64,000 nucleotides of DNA from Candidatus Vogelbacteria bacterium. GTDB taxonomy: Bacteria > Patescibacteriota > Minisyncoccia > Phycocordibacterales > XYD1-FULL-46-19. The DNA lies in assembly GCA_016188295.1 (NCBI GenBank), contig JACPIA010000004.1, positions 42,478 to 106,477 of the forward strand, written 5' to 3'. Below are positions 6,121-22,671 of the stretch, in pieces. A model generated the notes under the pieces. It was not told the DNA's origin. It did no database searches and saw only the letters and a list, made by a program, of their open reading frames with translations. The number at the start of each line of letters is the position of its first letter. Position 1 is the first letter of the stretch. The position numbers and the translations under genes were made by a program.

Positions 6121-6211
6121 GCGCCAGTTATCCCCATGGACCTTTAAATTATAAGGTTTTTTGACGCTCGCTGGTGGTATAATTAAGGGTAGATTTCTGA
6201 CATAAAAGAGG

Positions 6212-7006
6212 GTGATTACTGTATTAAAACAATTAATACGTCAGATTGTACCTTACCTTCTCTTTTGGATTGATCCCGCTTTAATTCGGGCTGTTTGTCG
6301 TGTTGTTATTTTTATTTTAATCACTATTACGTTAGTAACTCCAAGTATTACTTTAGCCGTTTTTAATCAGCAAATAAATTATCAAGGCAAGCTAACTGAT
6401 AGCAGTAATGTGGCGGTATCTGATGGCAATTACAGTATCGTGTTTAGTTTATATACCGTTTCTAGTGGTGGCTCTAATGTCTGGACTGAAACCAAAACAG
6501 TGACGGTTACCAATGGTCTATTCAGCACAATGTTAGGTTCGGACACAGCGCTTTCATCGGTTGATTTTAATCAAACTCTTTATTTAGGAGTTAAAGTGGG
6601 TTCCGATTCCGAAATGACACCGCGCAAGACTATCGGCACTGTCCCGGCTGCCTTCGAGGCGGACAAACTCGATGGCTTAGATTCTTTAAGTTTTATCAAT
6701 TCAGCTACTACTACTTTACCTAATGTCTGGAGTATGAGCGGGTTGGGCCAAGTAGGCTCATCGAGTGCGACTACGACGGCACTGGGTAATTTAGCTGTTA
6801 TTGGCACCACCATTTTTAATGGTTTAGTCAGTGGTTATCAGCAAATTTCGGCCCCGTTTTTCACCGCCACCTCCACCACTCAAGCCTCCACTTTCCCCTT
6901 GTTCACCGGCACCACTGCTACGATTACCAATGCCACCACCACCACCCTCTTCTCTACTACTGCTTCTTCCACCAATCTCTTTACTTCCAACTTCACCTTA
7001 TGCTAA
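6212..7006 (+). CDS. surface protein module 1: N-terminal signal-anchor, NYQGKLTD...LYLGVKVG domain, conserved T/S-rich C-terminal tail ending FTLC
   Basis: GTG start after aaagaggg; TM segment; C-terminal 49 aa identical to C-terminus of next module (inside 253-bp repeat). Confidence 0.6.
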   Translation: MITVLKQLIRQIVPYLLFWIDPALIRAVCRVVIFILITITLVTPSITLAVFNQQINYQGKLTDSSNVAVSDGNYSIVFSLYTVSSGGSNVWTETKTVTVTNGLFSTMLGSDTALSSVDFNQTLYLGVKVGSDSEMTPRKTIGTVPAAFEADKLDGLDSLSFINSATTTLPNVWSMSGLGQVGSSSATTTALGNLAVIGTTIFNGLVSGYQQISAPFFTATSTTQASTFPLFTGTTATITNATTTTLFSTTASSTNLFTSNFTLC

Positions 7007-7112
7007 TGGCGGAACCAATGCCACTTCCTTCGGTACTAATCTACTCACTTACTTTGACGGCACTCGTCTCACTTCCACTTCCAGTCCAACGGTTGGATAT
7101 GTGGTGGCGACT
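6860..7112 (+). repeat. 253-bp direct repeat copy 1 (spans stop of module 1 and presumed start of module 2)
   Basis: 100% identical to 8526-8779 by direct comparison. Confidence 0.9.
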
Positions 7113-8672
7113 ACGACCACCGCTACCTCAACTTTTTATGGCAATGTCCATATTATTGGCAATTTACAAACATCAGCTAGTTCGACCGCTGCCGGTCAAG
7201 CTAGTTTCACTTATGTGCCGGTTTTGGCGCATTCTTTTGGTGCTTGGGTCACCGGTGCGACCGGTGCCAATGCTCATGATTCGACGATCTATATCAATCC
7301 CGCCACCGCCGCTTCGGATACCAACTTGCTTGGTGCCGCTGTCGGTGGAGCCGTTAAATTTTTAATTGATGCCGAGGGTGATGTTTTTGCTAATTCCTTG
7401 ACTTTAGCCGGCAGTCAAACAGTCAGCACTTCCAGTATTTCCACTCTAATTGTGGAGAACAATTCTTTCCTGGGTGATGCCGCCAATAGTGACTGGACGC
7501 ATATCAAAGGCTCGGCGTGGGTGGAGAGTAATAAATCCAGTGGTGCTTCGTCCACCGCTTTGACGATTACTCAAACCGGCACAGGTAATATTTTACGCTT
7601 GGCTAGTGATTATAGTACGGCTAACCCTTTCTTTCTGGTTACGGCCGCCGGTAATGTGGGAGTTGGCACCTCTAGTCCTTACGCACCACTTGCGGTCGTC
7701 GGTCAAGCAGTGGCCGCTTATTTTACGGCAACGACCAGTGTGGCCTCAACTTTTCCTTATGCTTCGACTACGGGTTTAACTGTTTCCAGTTTGGCTTCCA
7801 CGACTAATTTGTTGATTTCTAAAATTGGTACTAGCACTCAAGCTTTTGCGGTTGGTTCGGGGTTGATCAGTAATTTAGATATGTTAGGCGGTGATCTATA
7901 TATTGGTGGTGATGCCGAGGTTGATGGCGTACTGTATGTTCAAGGTCAACTGATTTCTTCTGGCTCCTCCGAATTTACCGGCGCGATTACTTTTACTCGG
8001 GTACCGACCTTGCCTCACACTTTTACCTCGTGGGCGATTGGGACAGCTAACTCTAATGTTTCGGACGCTACGGTCTATATCAACCCCGCTACGGCTGATG
8101 CCGACACCAACTTATTTGGCTTGGCGGTGGGCGGGTCGGTCAAAACAATGATTGATGCTGAAGGTGATATTTTTGCCAATTCCTTAACTTTGTCTGGTGG
8201 ACAGACAGTCAGTACTTCAACTATCTCCACTCTAATCGTTGAGAATAATTCTTTCCTTGGTGATGCCGCTAGTAACGACTGGACTCACATCAGAGGCTCA
8301 GCGTGGGTCGAAAGCAATAAATCCAGTGGCGCTTCCACTACTGCGCTCACGATTACGCAGACTGGTACTGGTGATTTCTTTCGTATCGCCAGTGATTATA
8401 ATGATTCCGTGCCTTATTTTGTCGTCAAAAATTCCGGCAATGTCGGTATTGGCACTACCTCGCCTTACACTAAATTATCAGTCGATGGTAAGGGGGTGTT
8501 TAACCAAGATGTTAGAGCGGACTACTTCACCGCCACCTCCACCACTCAAGCCTCCACTTTCCCCTTGTTCACCGGCACCACTGCTACGATTACCAATGCC
8601 ACCACCACCACCCTCTTCTCTACTACTGCTTCTTCCACCAATCTCTTTACTTCCAACTTCACCTTATGCTAA
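6929..8672 (+). CDS. surface protein module 2 (tail-fibre-like; internal duplicated ~330-aa domains); start uncertain (Met inside repeat giving MPPPPPSSLLLLLPPISLLPTSPYA leader, or frameshift/non-ATG start)
   Basis: long ORF 6831-8672 in +1 frame relative to module 1; first conserved residues after junction ANGGTNATSFGTNLLTYFDGTRLTSTSSPTVGYVVAT; two internally repeated blocks (YINPATA..DTNL..AVGG..K..IDAEGD.FANSLTL.G.QTVSTS.ISTLIVENNSFLGDAA..DWTHI.GSAWVESNKSSGAS.TALTITQTGTG). Confidence 0.55.
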
Positions 8673-8779
8673 TGGCGGAACCAATGCCACTTCCTTCGGT
8701 ACTAATCTACTCACTTACTTTGACGGCACTCGTCTCACTTCCACTTCCAGTCCAACGGTTGGATATGTGGTGGCGACTA
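8526..8779 (+). repeat. 253-bp direct repeat copy 2 (spans stop of module 2 and presumed start of module 3)
   Basis: 100% identical to 6860-7112. Confidence 0.9.
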
Positions 8780-11700
8780 GTAGCAGAGCTTCGATCTTAC
8801 CTTATGCTTCCACTACCGCCTTGACTATTTCTGGTACCGGCTACTTTGCTGGTTCCGGCATTTGGAATTCGGCTGGTAGTGTGGGGGTGGGTACTACTTC
8901 ACCATCAGTAAAGTTAGAGGTAGTCACTGGTACGTCAGGGACGGAAAATCGGTTCTTGGTTGATCCCGCTACTACTAATGGCTCTAATCGTACTTTGCGC
9001 TTTAGTCGTTTAGGTGATGGTTGGGGGATTCAGTCTGAATACACTAACACTGGTGCTGTCCGCGATTTATCACTCCAAGCTTCTGGCGGCAATGTTGGTA
9101 TTGGTACTTCCACTCCAGGAGTAGCGCTGGATATTGTCGGGTCTTTTGGCACCAAACCTACGGCTATCAGCGGTACACTTTTGGCTTTATCTAATACTCT
9201 GTCCACTGCTAATAATACTTACGCTTCCCTTATTTCTGGTAATGCTGCCGAAGCTGGTATTTATCTTGGTGATCAAAATGATGTAGACATTGGCGGAATA
9301 ATTTATAACCACACTAATAATTATCTGGGTTTTCGTACTAATAATACTGCCGATCGACTGATTATTGATTCTAGTGGCAAGGTGGGGATCAATAAATCAG
9401 CTCCCGCTACCACTTTAGATGTGGTGGGGACGGCTAGTTCCACCGGTCTCCAAGTTAATGGGACAGGTAATATTCAAGGATCAGGGGATGCCAACCGTTT
9501 GACTATAGACTCGGCTTCTGGTAGTTCTGTTTTGAATATTATTAACTCCGGTCACGGCGAACATAGCGCGATTCAATTTACTCGTGAGCGATCCACTGGT
9601 CCGGGAATTGCCTCAGGCTTTATCCGCAGTCCCAGCAATACCGCTAACAACTTTGGTAAATTGGAATTGGGTGCGTTTACGTCTGGAACCTACGCGACCG
9701 CTTCTAGCTCGGTCGGCAGTCTTTTCCGGCTCAATAGCGATGCTTCAGCCTTATCCGGCGGTGCTTACGCGGAATTATTCCGTGCCAGTACCGCCGATTT
9801 AACGGAAAATTGGCTTAGTTTTAATATGCTCAATTCGGCTACGACGGAAACGACTTACTCCCAACTGCGGACGATTTTAACCGCTTCCACTACTGGCGAC
9901 GGTTCTCTGGCTTTCTTGACCAGAAAAGCCAATACCCTGACCGAAGCGATGCGGATTGATCACAACAGTCGTCTGGGAGTCGGTACTTCTACTCCTAACT
10001 GGTTATTGCAGGTGGCCGGGACGCGACCGTCGTTTGCGCTCTCGGATACGGCGGGTGGGACTAACCTTAAACACTGGCTCTTGTCTTCACAGGGAGGTAA
10101 TTTGTACATTGCTACTTCCTCGGATGCTCTGGCGACTAGCACCACGGCGGCTTTGACGGTCAGTGCTAATGGTTACTTGGGTATTGGTTCAACCACGCCC
10201 GCTTACGCTCTCTCGGTGACTGGCGGTTTGTTTGCTACTGCTTCCTCCACAATGATGAATGGGATCAATTTAACTGGCGGTTGCTTTGCTATTAGCGGAA
10301 CTTGTTTAGTCGGCGGTGGTAGCGGGACGGTCAATTCGGGAACGATTAACGGCTTGGCTTATTACACCGGATCGACAGCAGTCAGCTCGGCGGGGACTAA
10401 TCTCTTTTGGGACAATACTAACACTCGTTTGATGTTGGGGCATATTAATCGGGGAATCAATAATTTAACCGCTTCGACGACTTATATCGGTCAAGGATAT
10501 GATGGTACTGGCGCCGGTGATGCTGGTGGTAATACTTATATTTCTAATGGTGGTGATGCTACTGGTGCTGGTAATAGTGATGGTGGCGCTGGGGGGATTA
10601 TTACTATGGTTGCTGGTGGGCTCAAGACTGGGAGTGGCAGTGATGGCAATGATGGCATCGTCAATATCGGTAATAGCGCGGGCAGTAGAAATGCGATACT
10701 TAGTGTCTACGGCACTGCCACTACGACTGATGATTTGTGGGTTTTAGGTGGAGATATTAACTTGGCTCTCACGACGGCTTCGGCCCTGACGACTAATTTA
10801 TCTAATGGTAAAGATGTCGCTGGTGCTGCTGGTTTGGCCGGGACAGTTAATCTGGCAATCGGTGGTGAGGGTACTGGGGCTTCTGGTGATGGCGGTGCTG
10901 GCGGTACAGTCAATATCGCCAATGGCGGTATTGGTGATGGTGATGATGGCGGTAATGCTGGAACAGTTTATCTGGCTGTCGGTGGTGAAGGTGATACTGA
11001 TGCTGGAAATGTGGGTGGTGATGGCGGGACAGTCTTAATGGTTACAGGTGGTACAGGCAATACTAATGGCACAGCCGGTAAAGTGGGTATTGCCACTTCT
11101 ACTCCGTGGCGTACTTTGTCGGTAACCGGGTCAGTGGGATTTGATGGATTGACGACCAATACCGGTGCGGCCGCCGCTTCTCTTTGTTTATCATCTGCTA
11201 ATGAAGTAACCAAAAACACCGATAATGAGACCTGTCTGGCCTCCTCTTTGCGTTATAAAAATAATGTAACGGATTTAGCGACAGACACTGACCTCCTTGA
11301 TCAATTACGCACCGTCTCTTTTAATTATAAAAACGAATCTGATCCGCTAACCCATTACGGCCTAATCGCCGAGGAGGTGGCGGCTATTGATACGCGTCTT
11401 GTGAGTTATGATGATGAAGGTTTGGCTAATGGTATTCGCTGGTCCCACTTGACCACCCTGTTGATTAAACGAACCCAAGAGCAAGAGCAGAGGCTGGACG
11501 AATTATCTAGTTTGATTAGCGGTGGTGATATGTTAGCTAGACTGTGGACTTTAGATGAGACGACGGGAAACATCAAAGCGTTCGCGGTGCTCGATTTGAA
11601 TAATTTTGAACTTAGAAATGTCAAAGCGATCACCAGTGCTTCAGGTAAATGGAGTATTGATGATAATGGTAAATTAATTACGGAAGATATCGAGACTAAA

Positions 11701-12114
11701 CGTTTGTTAGTCGAAGAGGGTGTTACTACTCGCGACAAAGCCTCCGGCGATTATTATTGTATCTATGTGGAGAATGGAGTAGTTAAAACCGCCGCCGGTC
11801 GTTGTGAAGATTTGGAGGAAGAAGATAATGGGAATAATGATGACAGTGAGCCAGAGCCTGAAGAACCAGAAGAAGAACCGGAATTACCACCGACACTGGA
11901 GCCGGACGCTCCGGTGGATACTCCACCAACAGAAGAAGTACCTAACCCTGAGCCGGAACCAGAGCCCGAACCGGAACCAGACCAAGAGCCACAATCAACA
12001 CCTCTTGTCGAGGACTCGCCCCCAGATCCAATACCAGCTAATAATGAGGACTCTCCTCAAAATCCAATTCCCGAGGAGAGTCCTCAGAGTCCAGAACCCG
12101 AGCCTACTTCCTAA
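8595..12114 (+). CDS. giant tail-fibre-like surface protein (module 3) with Gly-rich beta-helix-type repeats, C-terminal peptidase S74 intramolecular-chaperone domain and acidic Pro/Glu-rich tail; start uncertain (ORF open from 8239)
   Basis: S74 motif region ...CLASSLRYKNNVTDL...LDQLRTVSFNYKNE...HYGLIAEEVAAID..LVSYDDEG..GIRWSHLTTLLIKRTQEQEQRLDEL; repeats GG(A/D)GGTV(N/Y)LA(I/V)GGEG; PEPEPEPEPEP tail. Confidence 0.7.
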
Positions 12115-12322: not shown

Positions 12323-13822
12323 ATGCTGGCAAAATCAGCTAATTTTACTCTCACCAATAAAACCCTAACTTTAGGGTTAATTGTCGTGTTGGCTGGTGTC
12401 TTGACTTGGTCGTTAGTTTGGCCGGTCGTAGTTCAAGCGGCGGAATTGACCGCCGAGGAAAATACCTTTACTACTACGGCGCTACCACCAGTCGATGATC
12501 CTGATGATTCTCCTGATTCAGTGGAATTGGTCGATACGGAAAACACTTTTAGCACTCAAGCTGAAGGTGGCGAGCCGGCTGAGTCAACTGTTGGCGGGGA
12601 AAATTCTTTCACCACCGCTCAAGTATTGATTGTTTTGCCGGCGGTGGGTATTGAGAGATCATTCACCACTACTAACGCCAACGCCCCGTCAGCGTTTGTT
12701 ATCAGCGCTGAATCGTCATTTACTACCACGAGCACTACTAGCGGCAACGGGACTAAAGAAATTATCTCGGCTGAACAGTCATTTACTACTAGTGTTGATG
12801 GCGGTGGCGGAGGCGAGACTGAAGAGGTGGTCTCTGGCGAGTCGAGCTTTACCACCACTAATAACGGTGGAACCGCGACTAATCGAGTAATTTCGACGGA
12901 GCAGAATTTTACCACTTCATCTGGTGATAATGATGATGATACGGACGATGACACTGATAATGGTGGTGGCGGTGGTGGTCATCGACGGCGTCCGCCAGTC
13001 GAATTGCCGGCCCAATGTTCGCCGTATCTGCTTAAATTTATAAAATGGGGGGCTAATAATGATCCACTAGAGGTCCGCAAATTACAGTATTTTTTGCGCG
13101 ACTTTGAGGGTTTTACTGATATCCAAGTAACCGGTATTTATGATCGAGCTACTTACGAGGCGGTAACTATTTTCCAAAAACGTTATATTAACGATGTGCT
13201 CTCGCCGTGGGGTATCATTGACTCGACGGGTTATGTATACATTACGACCACTTTAAAAATAAATTACATCGTCTGCGGTATTGAGCGACCGATCGCTTTA
13301 GATCTCCGCGAGCGTTATCGAGTTGCTTTAGAGCGCGGTGGCGAATTTAATCTTGATGAATTAGTAGCTACTACTACCACATCAACCACTACCGCCCCGG
13401 TTAAGGCTGGATTTCTCCAAGCGGCCGCTGTGGCTTTGCTTGATTTTGCCAAGTGGCTAAATTGGTGTTACTTGTTGTCGCTGTTACTTTTAATCGTCAG
13501 TGTTATCCTGATGCTGTTGTGGCGAGAAACTAGGCGTGAGCGCGATAAGGCGCGAAGGGAAAAAGAGTTAGCTCAAGCCTTATTGACGGCGGTCACGCGT
13601 GATCATACCGATACCGCTAATGATGCGATGCCGATGTCTGAGGCTTTATTATCCTCCAGTCTGTTCCATCCCGCTCCGCTTGATGAGGAGGAACCGGAAT
13701 TGCCTCTTGAATCATCTATAGAGGCAGAACCAGTTTTGGATGAGAATTTGGATGAAGCGGTGGCCGAGTGGCAGGAGATACCGGAGTCTGAAGCCGTCGA
13801 CGACAAATTGACAAGCAACTAA
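12323..13822 (+). CDS. secreted/membrane-anchored protein: signal peptide, 8 tandem ~22-aa repeats with core E-x-(S/N)FTT, peptidoglycan-binding (PG_binding_1-like) domain, C-terminal TM helix and acidic cytoplasmic tail
   Basis: repeats ENTFTT/ENTFST/ENSFTT/ERSFTT/ESSFTT/EQSFTT/ESSFTT/EQNFTT; PG-binding-like LQYFLRDFEGFTDIQVTGIYDRATYEAVTIFQKRY; TM WLNWCYLLSLLLLIVSVILMLLW. Confidence 0.65.
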   Translation: MLAKSANFTLTNKTLTLGLIVVLAGVLTWSLVWPVVVQAAELTAEENTFTTTALPPVDDPDDSPDSVELVDTENTFSTQAEGGEPAESTVGGENSFTTAQVLIVLPAVGIERSFTTTNANAPSAFVISAESSFTTTSTTSGNGTKEIISAEQSFTTSVDGGGGGETEEVVSGESSFTTTNNGGTATNRVISTEQNFTTSSGDNDDDTDDDTDNGGGGGGHRRRPPVELPAQCSPYLLKFIKWGANNDPLEVRKLQYFLRDFEGFTDIQVTGIYDRATYEAVTIFQKRYINDVLSPWGIIDSTGYVYITTTLKINYIVCGIERPIALDLRERYRVALERGGEFNLDELVATTTTSTTTAPVKAGFLQAAAVALLDFAKWLNWCYLLSLLLLIVSVILMLLWRETRRERDKARREKELAQALLTAVTRDHTDTANDAMPMSEALLSSSLFHPAPLDEEEPELPLESSIEAEPVLDENLDEAVAEWQEIPESEAVDDKLTSN

Positions 13823-13950
13823 AGGTCTGGTAGTAATCAAATCAGGAGGACTCAAAACAAAGTATTGCTTTGACTTTTGAGAGCCAACATTTCTGCACCC
13901 TGTCGGCGTGGAGATGTAGTGAGAACTTTGTAAACAGAAGGAGAGATGAG

Positions 13951-15582
13951 ATGAAGATGCGATTGGTATTACCAGCACTGGTCGCTCTGGCTAGTGTACT
14001 GGTCGGGTGTCCGGATGATCGGATTATCACTATTACTTGGAACGGTGATCCGATTACGGTTGGTCCACAATTGGGCGGCACCGGCGGTGTTATTGAGGTG
14101 AATGGTGTGACGATTGAATCGGCCGTGGCCGATTACACCTTCACTCACCCCGCTCTGGCGGGAGTGATCGGTCATATCGATTTGGCTACCGGCACTCCGT
14201 CGGTTGACGCAGTGCCGACTGATAAAAGTGGCGACGTGATCGCTATTGCCCTTATCACCATTGGCGCTTTTATCGATCTGGCGGGCGAGCAACATGTTTT
14301 CCCATATTTCGACAATAACGCCACTAGTGGCGCGGTATTCGTGCCGTTTGGTCCGGGCCTTGAGACGGCTGTTGTAAAACTGGGTCTTAGCGACAGTAGT
14401 GAGCGGCTTATTGTTTTGGTGGCCGCCGCCGAAGATCAGTTTGACAGCGATGGTGACGGTTTGCCGGATGGATGGGAAAATTGTGCTGGACTCAACGCCA
14501 ACAGTCCAACACCACCCAATGGCAACGCCAGCGATCCTGACGGCGATGGCTTAACTAACTGGGTTGAATTTATCCATTGGTCTCGTCCGATCGAATGGCT
14601 AAGTTGTAGTGATGGGCCGATTGGGCCTAATCCGCTCGATGCGGATTCGGATGATGACGGTTTCGATGATGGCGAAGAAGTGGATGAGGGGACGGATCCG
14701 ACGGATCCGGATGATTATCCCATCACGCCGCCAGACCTGGTAGTAGAATTATCATTTACTCAGACCAATCCGAGTGATTCAGCTATACGAGTAAATGAGA
14801 ATTTGATTTTTACGGCCACAGTAACTGGAGCCGTATCGGATCAGGAACTGGACTTTGACTGGTCGGTTGATGAACAGATTGTGCCATCAACGGGTGCAGT
14901 GTTGATTACTAGTTTCAATATCGCTGGCGATCACTCGGTAACGGTAACCGTCACCGATGGTCTCCAACGATCGGTTACGGACACTCGATCATTTGAGGTG
15001 ATGAATAGTGTTTCTGATAATTTTCAGGTGCACTTATTAATCAGCCCAATCAGGAGTGTCTATGTGGTTGGCGACAGGGTTCAGATTACCGCTACTCCAT
15101 CTAATGCCGTTGGTAGTGTCAGTTACCGTTGGTTCCTTAATGGGACTGAACTGACTGGATTGAATAGCTCTAATCCGATCCTGTCTTGGGTTTTCGTTAA
15201 CGCAAACCCACAAGATAAAGTCTTTAAAGTAATAGCGAAAGATGCTTCGGACTTGGTAGCTGAAGCAAATCTAGTTGTTACTGTGAGAATTAAGGTGCCG
15301 GCGACAATTAGGATCACCTCGCCGATTCCGGTGGGATCAAGTAATCCTACTTTCAATCCCGGCGAAACAATTGAGTTAAGTGCTGAGGTTGGAGGGGATA
15401 TACCACCAGATGCTTTTGTGAACTGGTTTACACCATGGGCTACTCACCCATCGGGTTTGGATACTAGTGTGGTAGTTCCTAATCTATTAGGTTCGAACTA
15501 CCTCTACGTCTTTTTGCGGTCAGCGGATAATACCATTTTGGCTTCGGATAGGGTCTGGATCCAAATTGATCCGGCTGATTAA
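13951..15582 (+). CDS. lipoprotein with thrombospondin-type-3-like Ca-binding Asp-rich repeats and PKD/Ig-like domains
   Basis: AGGAG RBS 7 nt before ATG 13951; lipobox LVG|C; DSDGDGLPDGWEN, DPDGDGLTNW, DADSDDDGFDDGEEVDEGTDPTDPDD; PKD-like FDWSVDE / YRWFLNG blocks. Confidence 0.7.
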   Translation: MKMRLVLPALVALASVLVGCPDDRIITITWNGDPITVGPQLGGTGGVIEVNGVTIESAVADYTFTHPALAGVIGHIDLATGTPSVDAVPTDKSGDVIAIALITIGAFIDLAGEQHVFPYFDNNATSGAVFVPFGPGLETAVVKLGLSDSSERLIVLVAAAEDQFDSDGDGLPDGWENCAGLNANSPTPPNGNASDPDGDGLTNWVEFIHWSRPIEWLSCSDGPIGPNPLDADSDDDGFDDGEEVDEGTDPTDPDDYPITPPDLVVELSFTQTNPSDSAIRVNENLIFTATVTGAVSDQELDFDWSVDEQIVPSTGAVLITSFNIAGDHSVTVTVTDGLQRSVTDTRSFEVMNSVSDNFQVHLLISPIRSVYVVGDRVQITATPSNAVGSVSYRWFLNGTELTGLNSSNPILSWVFVNANPQDKVFKVIAKDASDLVAEANLVVTVRIKVPATIRITSPIPVGSSNPTFNPGETIELSAEVGGDIPPDAFVNWFTPWATHPSGLDTSVVVPNLLGSNYLYVFLRSADNTILASDRVWIQIDPAD

Positions 15583-15773: not shown

Positions 15774-16397
15774 ATGTTCAATAAATTTGCTCAAATACTT
15801 ACTTTTAGTCTAGTTTTGGCTATCGTGGTTAGTTCGGTAGTACCGGTTGGGGTTTTGGCTCAAACTGCTCTAGTTGCTAATATCACTGCGCCAGCCAACA
15901 ATAGCACTGTTACCGTTGGTCAGGTAGTTAATTTTACAGCTACAGCATCAGGCGGTACTAGCCCTTACGCTTTTGTGTGGGATTTTGGTGCCGGCTTAAC
16001 TGGTAGTATTAGTCAAAATCCAAGCCAGACTTTTACTACTGCCGGCGCACGGACTATTACTCTAGTCGTAACTGATATTAATGATGTGTCAGTTACCCAA
16101 ACCATCAATCTTACAGTTGCTGATACTAGTAATCCAACCTTAGCGATCTCTAATATCCGGATTGAGAATGTCACTACTTCGGGGGCGACTCTTAAATGGA
16201 CCACCAACTTGCCGTCCACTAGTCGGGTAATTTATGACACCCAGTCTCACTCTACTTTGGGTACTGCCCCTAATTATGATTATGCTAATTCAACCGCTAC
16301 TTCGGATACCGCCACTAAGGTTACTGAACACACTGTCACTCTTTCGGGTTTGAGTGCTAACACCCAATATTTTTTCCGAGTTATTTCCGAAGAGTAA
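15774..16397 (+). CDS. secreted protein with PKD domain and fibronectin type III-like domain
   Basis: signal peptide; PKD motif VVNFTATASGGTSPYAFVWDFGAG; FN3-like ...LKWTTNLPSTSRVIYD...TQYFFRV. Confidence 0.7.
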   Translation: MFNKFAQILTFSLVLAIVVSSVVPVGVLAQTALVANITAPANNSTVTVGQVVNFTATASGGTSPYAFVWDFGAGLTGSISQNPSQTFTTAGARTITLVVTDINDVSVTQTINLTVADTSNPTLAISNIRIENVTTSGATLKWTTNLPSTSRVIYDTQSHSTLGTAPNYDYANSTATSDTATKVTEHTVTLSGLSANTQYFFRVISEE

Positions 16398-17868: not shown

Positions 17869-18614
17869 CAAAACCAAACATTGAATGTTTAGTTTTGAAA
17901 TGGAAGAACTATTTCTAATTCTTTTATTTTTGCACTACTAGTCTTTACTTCATTTTCGTATTCTTTTTGGTCTGCAAATTGACTCAAGATTAATTCGGTG
18001 TCCAGTAGATTATTCCACCGATTGGTGTCTATATAATCTTGGTAACTAGACCATGGGTATGATTTTTCTTTATTTATCCATTTAGGGTTATCACGGCAAT
18101 TACGGTGAATGTATGTTGAGGCATAAAGTAATTGATCGTTATCTTTGATGCGTACTGATTGGAATCGATTTTGGAATAAGTGACCACTTCCTTTGTATTT
18201 AGTATTAAAATATTTAGTGTAACTATTAGATATTCTCTGCATGTATTTTGATATTCCTCTATCCTCTATTTCCTCGACTAATAAATGGAAATGATTGGGC
18301 AAAAGAGCAAAAGCTTGCAATTTGACTGTCCTTCTATTAAGAATTTTATTATGTTTGTCTTTATCAAAACCAAACATTGAATGTTTGGTGTAGTGGGTAA
18401 TATGGTCACTAATATTGTTAATTGTCTCCGGTGATTGAAAGTAGAGAATCAAGAATAAAAATCTAACCCAATCTCTATTATCGAGAAAAATATCACGTTT
18501 CATTACTCCACGATTGTAGATATGGAATATCTCACTCACAACTAAGTCATCTTTGGGCATCATCATTTATTATATTATCTTTAGAATAAAAACCAAACAT
18601 TCAATGTTTGGTTT
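17869..18614 (-). mobile_element. IS200/IS605-like REP-associated tyrosine transposase (RAYT) element bounded by REP-like palindromes
   Basis: palindrome AAACCAAACATT(G/C)AATGTTTGGTTT at 17869-17897 and 18590-18614 flanking the tnpA ORF, third copy at 18367-18390 inside the CDS. Confidence 0.65.
17889..18566 (-). CDS. REP-associated tyrosine transposase / IS200-like TnpA (HuH Y1 transposase)
   Basis: HuH motif LPNHFHLLV; RAYT-like C-terminal pattern LFQNRFQS...YASTYIHRN...W.SY; N-terminal HIYNRGVMKRDIFLDNRDWVRFL. Confidence 0.75.
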   Translation of the reverse strand: MMMPKDDLVVSEIFHIYNRGVMKRDIFLDNRDWVRFLFLILYFQSPETINNISDHITHYTKHSMFGFDKDKHNKILNRRTVKLQAFALLPNHFHLLVEEIEDRGISKYMQRISNSYTKYFNTKYKGSGHLFQNRFQSVRIKDNDQLLYASTYIHRNCRDNPKWINKEKSYPWSSYQDYIDTNRWNNLLDTELILSQFADQKEYENEVKTSSAKIKELEIVLPFQN

Positions 18615-20804: not shown

Positions 20805-21674
20805 ATGGATCATCTAACTGATGAAAAAATTTTGAGTCTAATCGCACAGGCTAATCAGATACGCCAATCGATTATTGAGATGCTTTTGGTCGCTGGCTCC
20901 GGGCACACTGCCGGACCCTTGGGGATGGCCGATATTTTTACTTATTTATACTTTCATAAATTAAAGCATAATCCTAAACAGCCAGATTGGCCGGAGCGGG
21001 ATCGCTTGGTACTCTCAAATGGTCACATCTGCCCGGTATTGTACGCTACTATGGCGCATGCCGGCTACTTTCCGCTCGCTGATTTAACAACCTTACGTAA
21101 GTTAGGCAGTAAGTTGCAGGGTCATCCTCATCGCGAGTGGTTGCCAGCTTTAGAAACGAGCTCTGGGCCGTTGGGGACAGGACTCTCGCAAGCGGTGGGT
21201 ATGGCTTTGGCACTTAAGCTTGATCAAGGTCGCACTAGTGAACAAATGGTTTATTGTTTAATGAGTGATGGTGAGTTTGAGTGCGGTAATACTTGGGAGG
21301 CCATGATGTTGGCGGGTAAACAAGGCTTTCATAATTTGGTGGTGATTATTGATCGGAATAATATTCAAATCAGTGGTTTTACCGAGGAGGTGATGCCACT
21401 GGAACCGCTTAGAACTAAATTAGAATCTTTTAATTGGCATGTGATCGAGATTGATGGCCACAATTTTGAAGCGATTGACGCCGCGGTCGGTCAAGCTAAA
21501 GCGGTGTTTAATAAACCGACGGCCATTATTGCTCACACTATCCCAGGTAAAGGGGTGGCTGACTTTGAGCGTCGCTTTGAATGGCATGGCAAACCACCAA
21601 ACGCGGCGGAAGGAAAAATGGCGTTAAAAGAGTTACGTACTTTGGGTGGTAAAATTAAATCCGAGCATGAGTAG
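20805..21674 (+). CDS. transketolase, N-terminal (TPP-binding) subunit
   Basis: split transketolase; GHTAGPLGMADI..., TPP-binding GDG motif region. Confidence 0.85.
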   Translation: MDHLTDEKILSLIAQANQIRQSIIEMLLVAGSGHTAGPLGMADIFTYLYFHKLKHNPKQPDWPERDRLVLSNGHICPVLYATMAHAGYFPLADLTTLRKLGSKLQGHPHREWLPALETSSGPLGTGLSQAVGMALALKLDQGRTSEQMVYCLMSDGEFECGNTWEAMMLAGKQGFHNLVVIIDRNNIQISGFTEEVMPLEPLRTKLESFNWHVIEIDGHNFEAIDAAVGQAKAVFNKPTAIIAHTIPGKGVADFERRFEWHGKPPNAAEGKMALKELRTLGGKIKSEHE

Positions 21675-22671
21675 TCAAAATCATTTAACTAAGGAGCAAA
21701 AATTAAACTCAAAATTATTTGAGCTTTCTGTCGAGCAAGTACCGATCCGGAGTGGTTTTGGCGAGGGCTTAGTCCTAGCAGCTGATGAAGATAGAAATAT
21801 TGTCGGTCTGTGTGCCGATTTAGTCGAGTCGACTAAGATGCTCGCTTTTGCGGAAAAATATCCAGAGCGCTTTATTGAGCTGGGGGTGGCCGAGCAAAAT
21901 TTAGCCGGGGTGGCCTCGGGGTTGGCGGCCATGGGTAAAATCCCATTTATTACCTCATACGCGATGTTTAGCCCGGGGCGCAATTGGGAGCAAATTAGAA
22001 CGACTATCACTTACAATAATCGGCCGGTTAAAATCGTCGGCTCACATGCTGGCGTCTCGGTGGGACCCGACGGGGGGACGCATCAAGCGCTTGAAGATAT
22101 TGCGATTATGCGAGTGTTGCCTCGGATGATGGTGGTGGTGCCATGTGATGCTTTAGAGGCTAACCGAGCCACACGGGCGATCGCTAAGACCAACGATCCC
22201 ACTTATTTAAGATTAGCACGAGAAAAGACACCAATTATTACCACCAACGACTCACTATTTAAATTAGGCCAAGCTAATATGTTGTGGGAAGATGAAAAAC
22301 CGGCAGTGGTGATTATTGCTTGTGGACCGCTAGTCTACAATGCTTTGCAAGCGGCGCGGAAATTATTGCCCGAGGGTGTAGGTGTGACGGTGATCAATAA
22401 TCACACTATTAAACCATTAGATAACAAAACTATTTTAAGTGAAGTGAAACGAACTGGCGCGGTGGTGACGGTAGAAGAACATCAACAAGCCGGTGGCTTA
22501 GGTAGTGCGGTGGCTGAATTGCTGGCCACTAATTATCCGGTGCCGATGGAGTTTGTGGGGGTCAAAGATGAGTACGGTCAGTCAGGGACGCCAGCCGAAT
22601 TGATTGAAAAATACGAATTGGGAACCGAGGCGATTATTGAAGCGGTGCAGAAAGTGCTAACTCGAAAGTAG
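21646..22671 (+). CDS. transketolase, C-terminal (pyrimidine-binding/C-term) subunit
   Basis: 341 aa, overlaps N-subunit gene; typical transketolase C-half. Confidence 0.85.
   Translation: MVKLNPSMSSQNHLTKEQKLNSKLFELSVEQVPIRSGFGEGLVLAADEDRNIVGLCADLVESTKMLAFAEKYPERFIELGVAEQNLAGVASGLAAMGKIPFITSYAMFSPGRNWEQIRTTITYNNRPVKIVGSHAGVSVGPDGGTHQALEDIAIMRVLPRMMVVVPCDALEANRATRAIAKTNDPTYLRLAREKTPIITTNDSLFKLGQANMLWEDEKPAVVIIACGPLVYNALQAARKLLPEGVGVTVINNHTIKPLDNKTILSEVKRTGAVVTVEEHQQAGGLGSAVAELLATNYPVPMEFVGVKDEYGQSGTPAELIEKYELGTEAIIEAVQKVLTRK

Follow-up and report, generated by a model that had tools for sequence, protein, structure and literature searches.

A putative surface-fibre gene of a Vogelbacteria bacterium, written as three reading frames that meet at two identical frame-breaking repeats

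Bdellovibrio bacteriovorus carries fibres known as mosaic adhesive trimers (MATs). Those of the Peptidase_S74 (S74) subgroup share a signal peptide, an invariant β-rich N-domain of ~130 amino acids (aa), a trimeric stalk and a variable tip, and end in an S74 chaperone/protease with the motif SDxxxK (Caulton et al., 2024; PMC10769870). The subject of this article is a fibre locus of similar layout in a Candidatus Vogelbacteria bacterium (Patescibacteriota), situated at positions 6212 to 12114 of a 64,000-nucleotide (nt) stretch of its genome (contig JACPIA010000004.1, positions 42,478 to 106,477). This stretch is hereafter the window, and all coordinates are window positions. In known fibres, the S74 domain drives trimer folding and then cleaves itself off. 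At the Vogelbacteria locus, three open reading frames (ORFs), termed pieces A, B and C, meet within two copies of a 254-nt repeat, R. Judging from their homologues, A, B and C are parts of one large predicted surface-fibre (adhesin) gene of ~1,966 codons, a reading that is valid whether the frame breaks between them are real lesions or artefacts. At a rough probability of 60%, we favour a real frame-breaking lesion and a fibre gene that was recently inactivated. The elements of the locus are as follows.

6175..6183, + strand: extended −10 promoter-like element TGgTATAAT, 29 nt 5′ of the GTG start, read from the sequence
6212..7006, + strand: piece A, 264 codons + TAA, GTG start; 5′ part of the fibre gene
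6302-6364, + strand: hydrophobic signal/anchor of piece A, aa 31-51, placed after R26 / R30 and followed by TLA-VF; assigned by inspection
6329-6712, + strand: N-domain of piece A, aa 40-167; conserved, β-rich
6860..7113, + strand: repeat copy 1 (R), Thr-rich linker, frame break and ANGGT module; identical over 254 nt to 8526-8779
7001, + strand: frame break 1, one surplus base in …ACC TTA (T) GCT AAT GGC…, creating TGC TAA
7002..8672, + strand: piece B, 556 codons + TAA; two tandem stalk modules, each ~262 aa
8526..8779, + strand: repeat copy 2 (R); orthologue homology ends at 8453, just upstream
8667, + strand: frame break 2, same sequence as at 7001, within the perfect repeat
8668..12114, + strand: piece C, 1,148 codons + TAA; distal stalk, Gly-rich region, S74, conserved C-terminal region and acidic Pro/Glu tail
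11242..11403, + strand: Peptidase_S74 (intramolecular chaperone of endosialidase / tail fibres), piece C aa 859-912; Pfam PF13884

Dropping T7001 and T8667 joins the pieces into a 1,966-aa protein that runs from a membrane anchor through a conserved N-domain and repeated stalk modules to a C-terminal S74 chaperone domain. Anchor and N-domain occur only in piece A, S74 only in piece C, and neither in piece B, which in addition has no start codon and no export signal of its own. The three are taken as one gene because only the joined protein holds both the anchor/N-domain and S74. For A and B, this conclusion follows because two syntenic orthologues are continuous across junction 1. The first, P0121 (2,115 aa, contig L086), shares the N-terminus MITVLKQLIR with piece A and aligns to joined residues 1-1075 in a single high-scoring segment pair that spans the junction, at 59% identity overall and ~85-90% in conserved blocks. 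Piece B is collinear with its residues ~264-765 (L086 2952-4283, 74% nt identity), and L086 has DedA and UppP genes directly upstream, as does the window. The second, in L003 (~1,850 aa), matches joined residues 1-497 at 66% in one frame, and L003 is collinear with the window on both flanks of the fibre gene. Pieces A and B are also fused in P0015. Continuity across junction 2 is inferred because the two junctions are identical and because the module that opens both B and C (ANGGTNATSFG…) is internal in other proteins, namely in every homologue examined: P0005, P0030 (…TLGIANGGTNATSLG…), P0041 and L004.

The wider family is congruent with a single gene. Among 80 related loci fetched with the N-domain profile, 32 ORFs end at a stop (median 1,554 aa from the N-domain), 43 at the end of their contig and 5 at the 10-kb flank limit. 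True frame breaks number two in this set, both at unrelated sites; two more fall at N-masked stretches. Counted alike, ORF A extends 225 aa from the start of its N-domain and is the shortest of the set bar one masked case, while the best 148 representatives with an N-domain have a median length of 1,113 aa. The first-pass annotation had seen here a series of tandem genes for a tail-fibre-like surface protein. The nature of the protein is borne out, the tandem arrangement is not: orthologues encode A and B as one ORF, ORFs of relatives that reach a stop extend a median of 1,554 aa from the N-domain, and the opening module of B and C is internal in all other homologues. The −10-like element at 6175..6183 is the only one that precedes any of the three pieces, and neither junction has a promoter- or terminator-like site. 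Piece A is 100% identical to the NCBI entry 'hypothetical protein HYV76_01135 [Candidatus Vogelbacteria bacterium]' (P0009), which is encoded on a metagenome-assembled genome (MAG) contig of 162,967 bp. Pieces B and C are missing from a collection of 5.8 billion proteins in which piece A is present, even though they made up half of the query; they may have been rejected as proteins when the depositor annotated the genome.

The joined protein resembles the MAT fibres of the S74 subgroup in having an export signal (by inspection), then a conserved β-rich N-domain of ~130 aa, a long repetitive stalk, and a variable distal part with a terminal autoproteolytic S74 chaperone domain. Both families show mosaic 'tip swapping' among paralogues and orthologues, and in both cases the organism that carries the fibre is a bacterium living on other bacteria. 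The N-domain matches NCBIfam NF053851 (Bdello_MAT_N) at 31.5 bits (E 1.3e-7; cut-off 60) over profile positions 7-79 of 162, and five of six family members reach 34-47 bits against the same cut-off. The likeness is thus sub-threshold (31-47 bits vs 60) and covers half of the profile. The Vogelbacteria protein further differs from MAT in its stalk modules, which are of a Patescibacteria type (GNVGIGTTSP, ANGGT and Thr-rich linkers), and in being frame-broken, and both a trimeric state and a surface location are only putative here. An AlphaFold2 model of the N-domain is all-β, with six strands of at least three residues and one short helix (mean predicted local distance difference test score, 63.7). 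A structure search of the Protein Data Bank (PDB) with this model found no significant neighbour, only generic β-sandwiches at E > 0.006; the MAT N-domain likewise has no significant PDB neighbour (Caulton et al., 2024; PMC10769870). Among 1.84 billion representatives, the N-domain family comprises 27,735 clusters at E ≤ 1e-3 and 11,399 at E ≤ 1e-10, and the best 80 genome loci with the domain are nearly all from Patescibacteria. Because the matches to Bdello_MAT_N are consistent, though sub-threshold, they suggest that the fibres of predatory Bdellovibrio are linked to those carried by episymbiotic bacteria of the candidate phyla radiation (CPR). We class the protein as a relative, of Patescibacteria type, of the MAT / tail-fibre-like S74 adhesins.

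A second point of comparison is provided by phage tail fibres and endosialidase tailspikes, with which the protein shares a Gly/Thr/Ser-rich repetitive stalk and an S74 domain that scores above threshold against PF13884 (35.2 bits, cut-off 22, E 1.6e-8). The motif reads S-S-L-R-Y-K: its Ser and Lys are in register with SDxxxK and so retain the Ser…Lys spacing, and a Ser replaces the Asp. Unlike the phage genes, this one is chromosomal, situated between secA-dedA-uppP and housekeeping genes and outside any prophage; a membrane anchor and a cellular N-domain take the place of the virion-attachment domain, and ~200 residues remain C-terminal of S74. The C-terminal tail is homologous to those of L003 (70% aa identity) and P0121 (56%). 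The stalk modules of piece B lie at 7116-7613 and 7988-8455, and 7269-7568 is 76% identical in nt to 8055-8354. Elsewhere in the family, two homologous proteins carry Hint/intein-like pieces, at the C-terminal end of P0041 (…LMGH|CVTGDTKL…) and at the N-terminal start of P0117 (…EGTHNFIGNDIIAHN|T…), which suggests possible inteins or bacterial intein-like domains inside these fibre genes.

The two breaks are located precisely by homology. R is a perfect direct repeat of 254 nt (6860-7113 = 8526-8779, spacing 1,666 nt), outside both ends of which identity drops to background (16-38%) within a few bases; a match of this kind is impossible by chance. A repeat scan of the 64-kb window found only these two copies and no inverted repeats. 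The first-pass annotation had described perfect repeats at 6860-7112 and 8526-8779, one base shorter than the exact length, and identical junctions with the downstream frame at +1, and the alignment of R confirms both. Each copy holds the last 48 codons and the TAA of the upstream frame (…NLFTSNFTLC, then stop; …STNLFTSNFTLC), with the stops at 7004-7006 and 8670-8672. After each stop, coding resumes in the +1 frame, in which the next piece reads YANGGTNATSFGTNLLTYFDGTRLTSTSSPTVGYVVAT (…SPYANGGTNATSFGTNLLTYFDGTRLTSTSSPTVGYVVAT). Homology in frame A reaches …NFTL and homology in frame B begins at (A)NGG. The former frame is fixed by P0054 (TTASSTNLFTSNLTL) and by TTNFTLAN of L004, the latter by GGTNATSFATNLLTYFDGTRLTSTSSPTVGYLVATS of L004, where 33 of 35 residues match from 7005 onward (77% nt identity). 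L004, a Vogelbacteria relative, passes through the whole region in one frame: …ASSTSLYTTNFTLAN-LTGILKATAGVISTALVNLTTDITGTLGIG-NGGTNATSFATNLLTYFDGTRLTSTSSPTVGYLVATS… (TTNFTLAN…GIGNGGTNATSF). A protein search with the 84-aa fused R peptide gave no matches, probably owing to low complexity.

What lies in the +1 frame ahead of each stop had been described by the first-pass annotation as a Pro-rich stretch leading into the next gene or, on another of its readings, as a linker. Only two starts occur in that frame, GTG 6831 and ATG 6930, both inside coding sequence; the ATG of MPPPPPSS… at 6930 (8596 in copy 2) would give an overlap of 77 nt, and the ATGs near the stop itself (7000, 7006) belong to the third frame. 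The Pro-rich peptide is an off-frame reading of the Thr-rich linker, the real frame of which is fixed by homology to P0054 and L004, and the 78-nt gene overlap proposed earlier is not supported. The claim that ~175 nt are open in two frames does hold at copy 1, where the +1 frame is open from 6831 (176 nt), and at copy 2 it is open from 8239. It is nothing unusual: over the whole fibre gene, the +1 frame contains nine stop-free runs of at least 175 nt that amount to 45% of its length, and two-frame openness is ordinary in a Thr/Ser/Gly/Ala-rich fibre gene.

Comparison with the orthologues shows what R is. DNA homology to them ends inside R, at 6874 (L086) or 6897 (L003), and restarts 3-9 nt past its end, at 7116 / 7122. 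In its place, the orthologues hold another version of the same linker module (…NSTTTSATTTNLAITGLGQGWLNVTGPNGGVTSSTSPTVAYLTATS…). The borders of R fall in the conserved motifs FTATSTT… and …SPTVGYVVAT, and its length departs from that of the orthologous patches by 14 and 11 nt. Each difference equals 2 mod 3, which fits a net +1 lesion. R is thus a replaced patch and bears the marks that homologous recombination or gene conversion leaves behind. Among 36 related fibre ORFs of 3 kb or more, five contain internal direct repeats (length ≥ 100 nt, identity ≥ 95%), which are in frame in every case. In L003, 10565-11331 and 11645-12411 form a 768-nt repeat (97.8% identity) of linker plus stalk module, again in frame, which begins at the equivalent of R nt 38. 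The pattern recalls concerted evolution, or gene conversion, among the internal repeats of bacterial adhesin genes (by analogy, pilE/pilS-type conversion in Neisseria): a sharp-bordered patch is uniform inside each genome and differs from one genome to the next, the R copies being 100% identical and the same-position patch copies of L003 97.8%. It differs in that neither a silent donor locus nor dedicated machinery came to light in the window and in that the converted patch bears a lesion. Mosaicism extends to the distal gene. The orthologues differ in module order and distal end (S74 in the window, no Pfam S74 match in P0121 or L003), and window 8454-11522 has almost no DNA homology to L086 / L003, which is regained at 11523-11813 (last ~300 nt). 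In the distal part, close relatives thus seem to have exchanged the tip or stalk.

A compositional peculiarity of the linkers deserves mention. Codons ending in C make up 63% of the left part of R, as against 24% of the remaining gene (p = 3.6e-8). A foreign origin of R, or selection on its +1 frame, was considered on this basis and rejected, the native continuous linkers of L086 and L003 being equally biased (fraction of C-ending codons 0.50-0.55 vs 0.23-0.30). The bias is a property of this type of linker and carries no information on origin or dual coding. As a general observation, Thr-rich linkers (window 6860-7000 and 8526-8666; L086 2751-2870; L003 10529-10828) have two to three times as many C-ending codons as the rest of their gene, a bias that is missing in L004.

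On the favoured explanation, the native linker would have been replaced by R through intragenic or inter-paralogue recombination (gene conversion), the usual route in a mosaic family. A frame-breaking indel would have arisen in one linker copy and been carried by conversion to the second site, or would have come with the patch. R is located at two boundaries between modules, and with the net +1 lesion (TTA-T-GCT) in both copies the frame stops and shifts twice, leading ORF finders to call three 'genes'. The product as written would be only the 264-aa anchor stub of a pseudogene or an 'off' allele. The lesion is considered recent because the downstream frames of 556 and 1,148 codons are intact and the R copies are identical. 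The rest of the window appears cleanly assembled, with its housekeeping genes intact. Several points weigh against this explanation. In cells, the surplus T may be absent from one of the sites or from both. For the lesions to be identical, either conversion must have followed the mutation or the assembler must have written a single consensus at both places. The ~1,700 downstream codons without decay are equally expected of a functional arrangement, and piece C has no collinear orthologue. Moreover, no database searched yielded an unbroken copy of R, so that a 1-nt insertion and a 3n+2 deletion (~92 nt relative to L004) explain the lesion equally well.

The first alternative is an artefact of assembly or consensus, in which the gene is single and maybe intact in cells and the two copies of R were both written from a single graph node. 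The gene would be hypervariable and present in multiple strains, and bubble-popping, a minority variant or a chimeric path through it would account for the surplus T, for the perfect identity or for the number of 1,666-nt units. We regard this as rather unlikely, yet in need of serious consideration. A repeat of 254 nt exceeds any assembly k-mer, and an arrangement A-R-(B-R)n-C would form a graph loop whose n short reads presumably could not fix. The fibre gene family is an assembly hot-spot, with 43 of the 80 related contigs stopping inside it, and the absence of B and C from the protein collection that holds A may point the same way, as far as it reflects how they were annotated. There is also a precedent in a comparable CPR surface-protein gene with repeats, which was misassembled until manual curation (PMC6851277). 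On the other side, the surplus base lies outside any homopolymer, in an A-T-G context that is not typical of sequencing error. The contig, at 162,967 bp, is a long one, and the other genes of the window are intact. Independent assemblies of relatives show in-frame, near-perfect intragenic repeats as well, which makes the repeat itself credible.

The same repeats bear on the proposal, already made in the first-pass annotation, that the copies of R function as recombination handles, through which a cassette system would delete, duplicate or swap the 1,666-nt middle module and so vary host attachment. A perfect identity of 254 bp is an efficient substrate for RecA and would suit such a role. Consistent with it, module order and distal tip vary among orthologues (S74 being present in the window and not in P0121/L003), and near-perfect intragenic repeats recur in the family, so the mosaic background of the proposal is plausible. 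The cassette system itself is unlikely. The unit is 3n+1 nt long, such that its deletion or duplication never restores the frame and a crossover leaves one break. The 64-kb window holds no donor cassettes, no further copies of R and no other fibre-like sequence, and no recombinase or reverse transcriptase lies beside the locus. The repeats are direct only. A search of the window for pilE/pilS-like donors, for shufflon-type inverted repeats with a recombinase and for the template and variable repeats (TR/VR) with reverse transcriptase of a diversity-generating retroelement found none of these. Nothing sets such a system apart from the passive homologous recombination of any repetitive gene. A more speculative variant, in which R with its stop/+1 junction serves as a functional, portable 'segment boundary' that silences the distal fibre until recombination or rare +1 decoding, is very doubtful.

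Rare decoding leads to programmed +1 ribosomal frameshifting at the two identical cassettes, by which a single mRNA would yield an anchor stub, a fibre of intermediate length and the full-length fibre. A polyprotein of this kind, with Pro-rich linkers, had been raised by the first-pass annotation; that the pieces share one protein agrees with it, and the mechanism is highly improbable. The known example is prfB, in which a +1 shift is required at an in-frame stop (CUU UGA C, with an upstream Shine-Dalgarno (SD) sequence). The likeness is that here, too, the frames are related by +1, the break adjoins a stop codon and both downstream frames are intact. The junction CCUUAUGCUAAUGG differs in that it has no slippery codon and no SD-like stimulator, its stop is probably strong, and it is not conserved in relatives. 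In …AAC UUC ACC UUA UGC UAA UGG…, no codon of ACC/UUA/UGC re-pairs at two or more Watson-Crick positions in +1, such that the shifts from UGC to GCU, UUA to UAU and ACC to CCU are impossible by re-pairing. The stop context is UAA-U, which in E. coli is a strong terminator and may be one in this organism. The 20 nt upstream contain no purine-rich SD-like element, the downstream RNA fold is not notable (z = −1.7) and has no Rfam match, and no frameshift-suppressor tRNA was found among the seven tRNAs of the window, all of which are ordinary. The same context at both sites might be read as conservation, but it stems from duplication rather than from selection. Orthologues and the 80 relatives are without a break at the same module boundary, and a search for the junction DNA pattern in JGI metagenome contigs returned two chance matches, both in unrelated Gly-rich genes.

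Three separate overlapping genes, with B and C starting at ATG 6930 / 8596 (MPPPPPSSLLLLLPPISLLPTSPYA…) and the Leu-rich off-frame stretch as a signal peptide, are scarcely credible: an in-frame ATG does lie 77 nt ahead of each stop, followed by a hydrophobic run and P-Y-A that loosely resembles a signal-peptide cleavage region (by inspection), and the missing ribosome-binding site is uninformative in a genome with little SD use (most genes of the window have no SD, which leaves this test of the B/C starts powerless), but A and B are fused in orthologues, the ANGGT module is never N-terminal among homologues, the MPPPPPSSLLLLLPP… Leu/Pro peptide has no positively charged n-region and is the automatic +1 reading of ACC/TCC/CTC-rich Thr/Ser/Leu codons to which the continuous linkers of orthologues are equally biased, the +1 frame is open across 45% of the gene regardless, and the context 5′ of the ATG is GC-richer than, and unlike, the AT-rich real starts here.

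The fibre gene is embedded among genes of mixed function. Upstream lie an O-antigen-ligase-like/TPR protein, then secA, a DedA-family gene and uppP; downstream follow a PG_binding_1 protein, a TSP3/PKD surface protein, gatB, an IS200-like transposase, gap, rpiB, rpe, a split transketolase and a tRNA cluster. The features of note in this neighbourhood are listed here.

12323-13822, + strand: PG-binding gene with ~nine copies of an E-x-S/T-F-T/S-T motif, a Gly/Asp-rich spacer, PG_binding_1 and a C-terminal membrane segment
13870-15582, + strand: predicted TSP3-repeat + PKD surface protein
15774-16397, + strand: predicted PKD + fn3-like surface protein
17889-18566, − strand: IS200/IS605-type Y1 transposase gene (PF01797), between gatB and gap, ~6 kb downstream of the fibre locus
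20805-21674 and 21646-22671, + strand: transketolase as two overlapping ORFs, the N-terminal and the pyrimidine-binding/C-terminal halves

Because two more predicted surface proteins (13870-15582 and 15774-16397) follow the fibre gene, the region from 6.2 to 16.4 kb is viewed as a cell-surface gene cluster. A PG_binding_1 gene is kept beside the fibre gene in L003, L010, L025 and L086, and another follows the small fibre-like P0054. The idea that this neighbour is a conserved partner of the fibre was rejected, since the pairing is confined to close relatives (three of the 80 loci plus L086). The two-part transketolase is probably a natural split form, not a frameshift.

For the study of Patescibacteria, the locus carries a caution: 'tandem tail-fibre-like genes' in their MAGs may be one giant repetitive adhesin gene that was split by a frame break or by assembly. 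That 43 of the 80 loci (L003-L082) end within the fibre ORF implies that these genes are systematic break points of short-read MAGs and that CPR fibre models are often truncated. The analysis yields as by-products a 1,966-aa gene model, two syntenic orthologues with module and tip swapping, and an N-domain, distantly akin to that of Bdellovibrio MAT, that heads tens of thousands of clusters in episymbiotic bacteria. Were the segment-boundary reading true, the locus would encode a fibre-length ladder or an on/off adhesin, a new form of phase/antigenic variation in episymbiotic Patescibacteria. If, as the favoured reading holds, the break is real, and if it is also variable in the population, the fibre would be a candidate on/off adhesin, with a bearing on how an episymbiont chooses its host.

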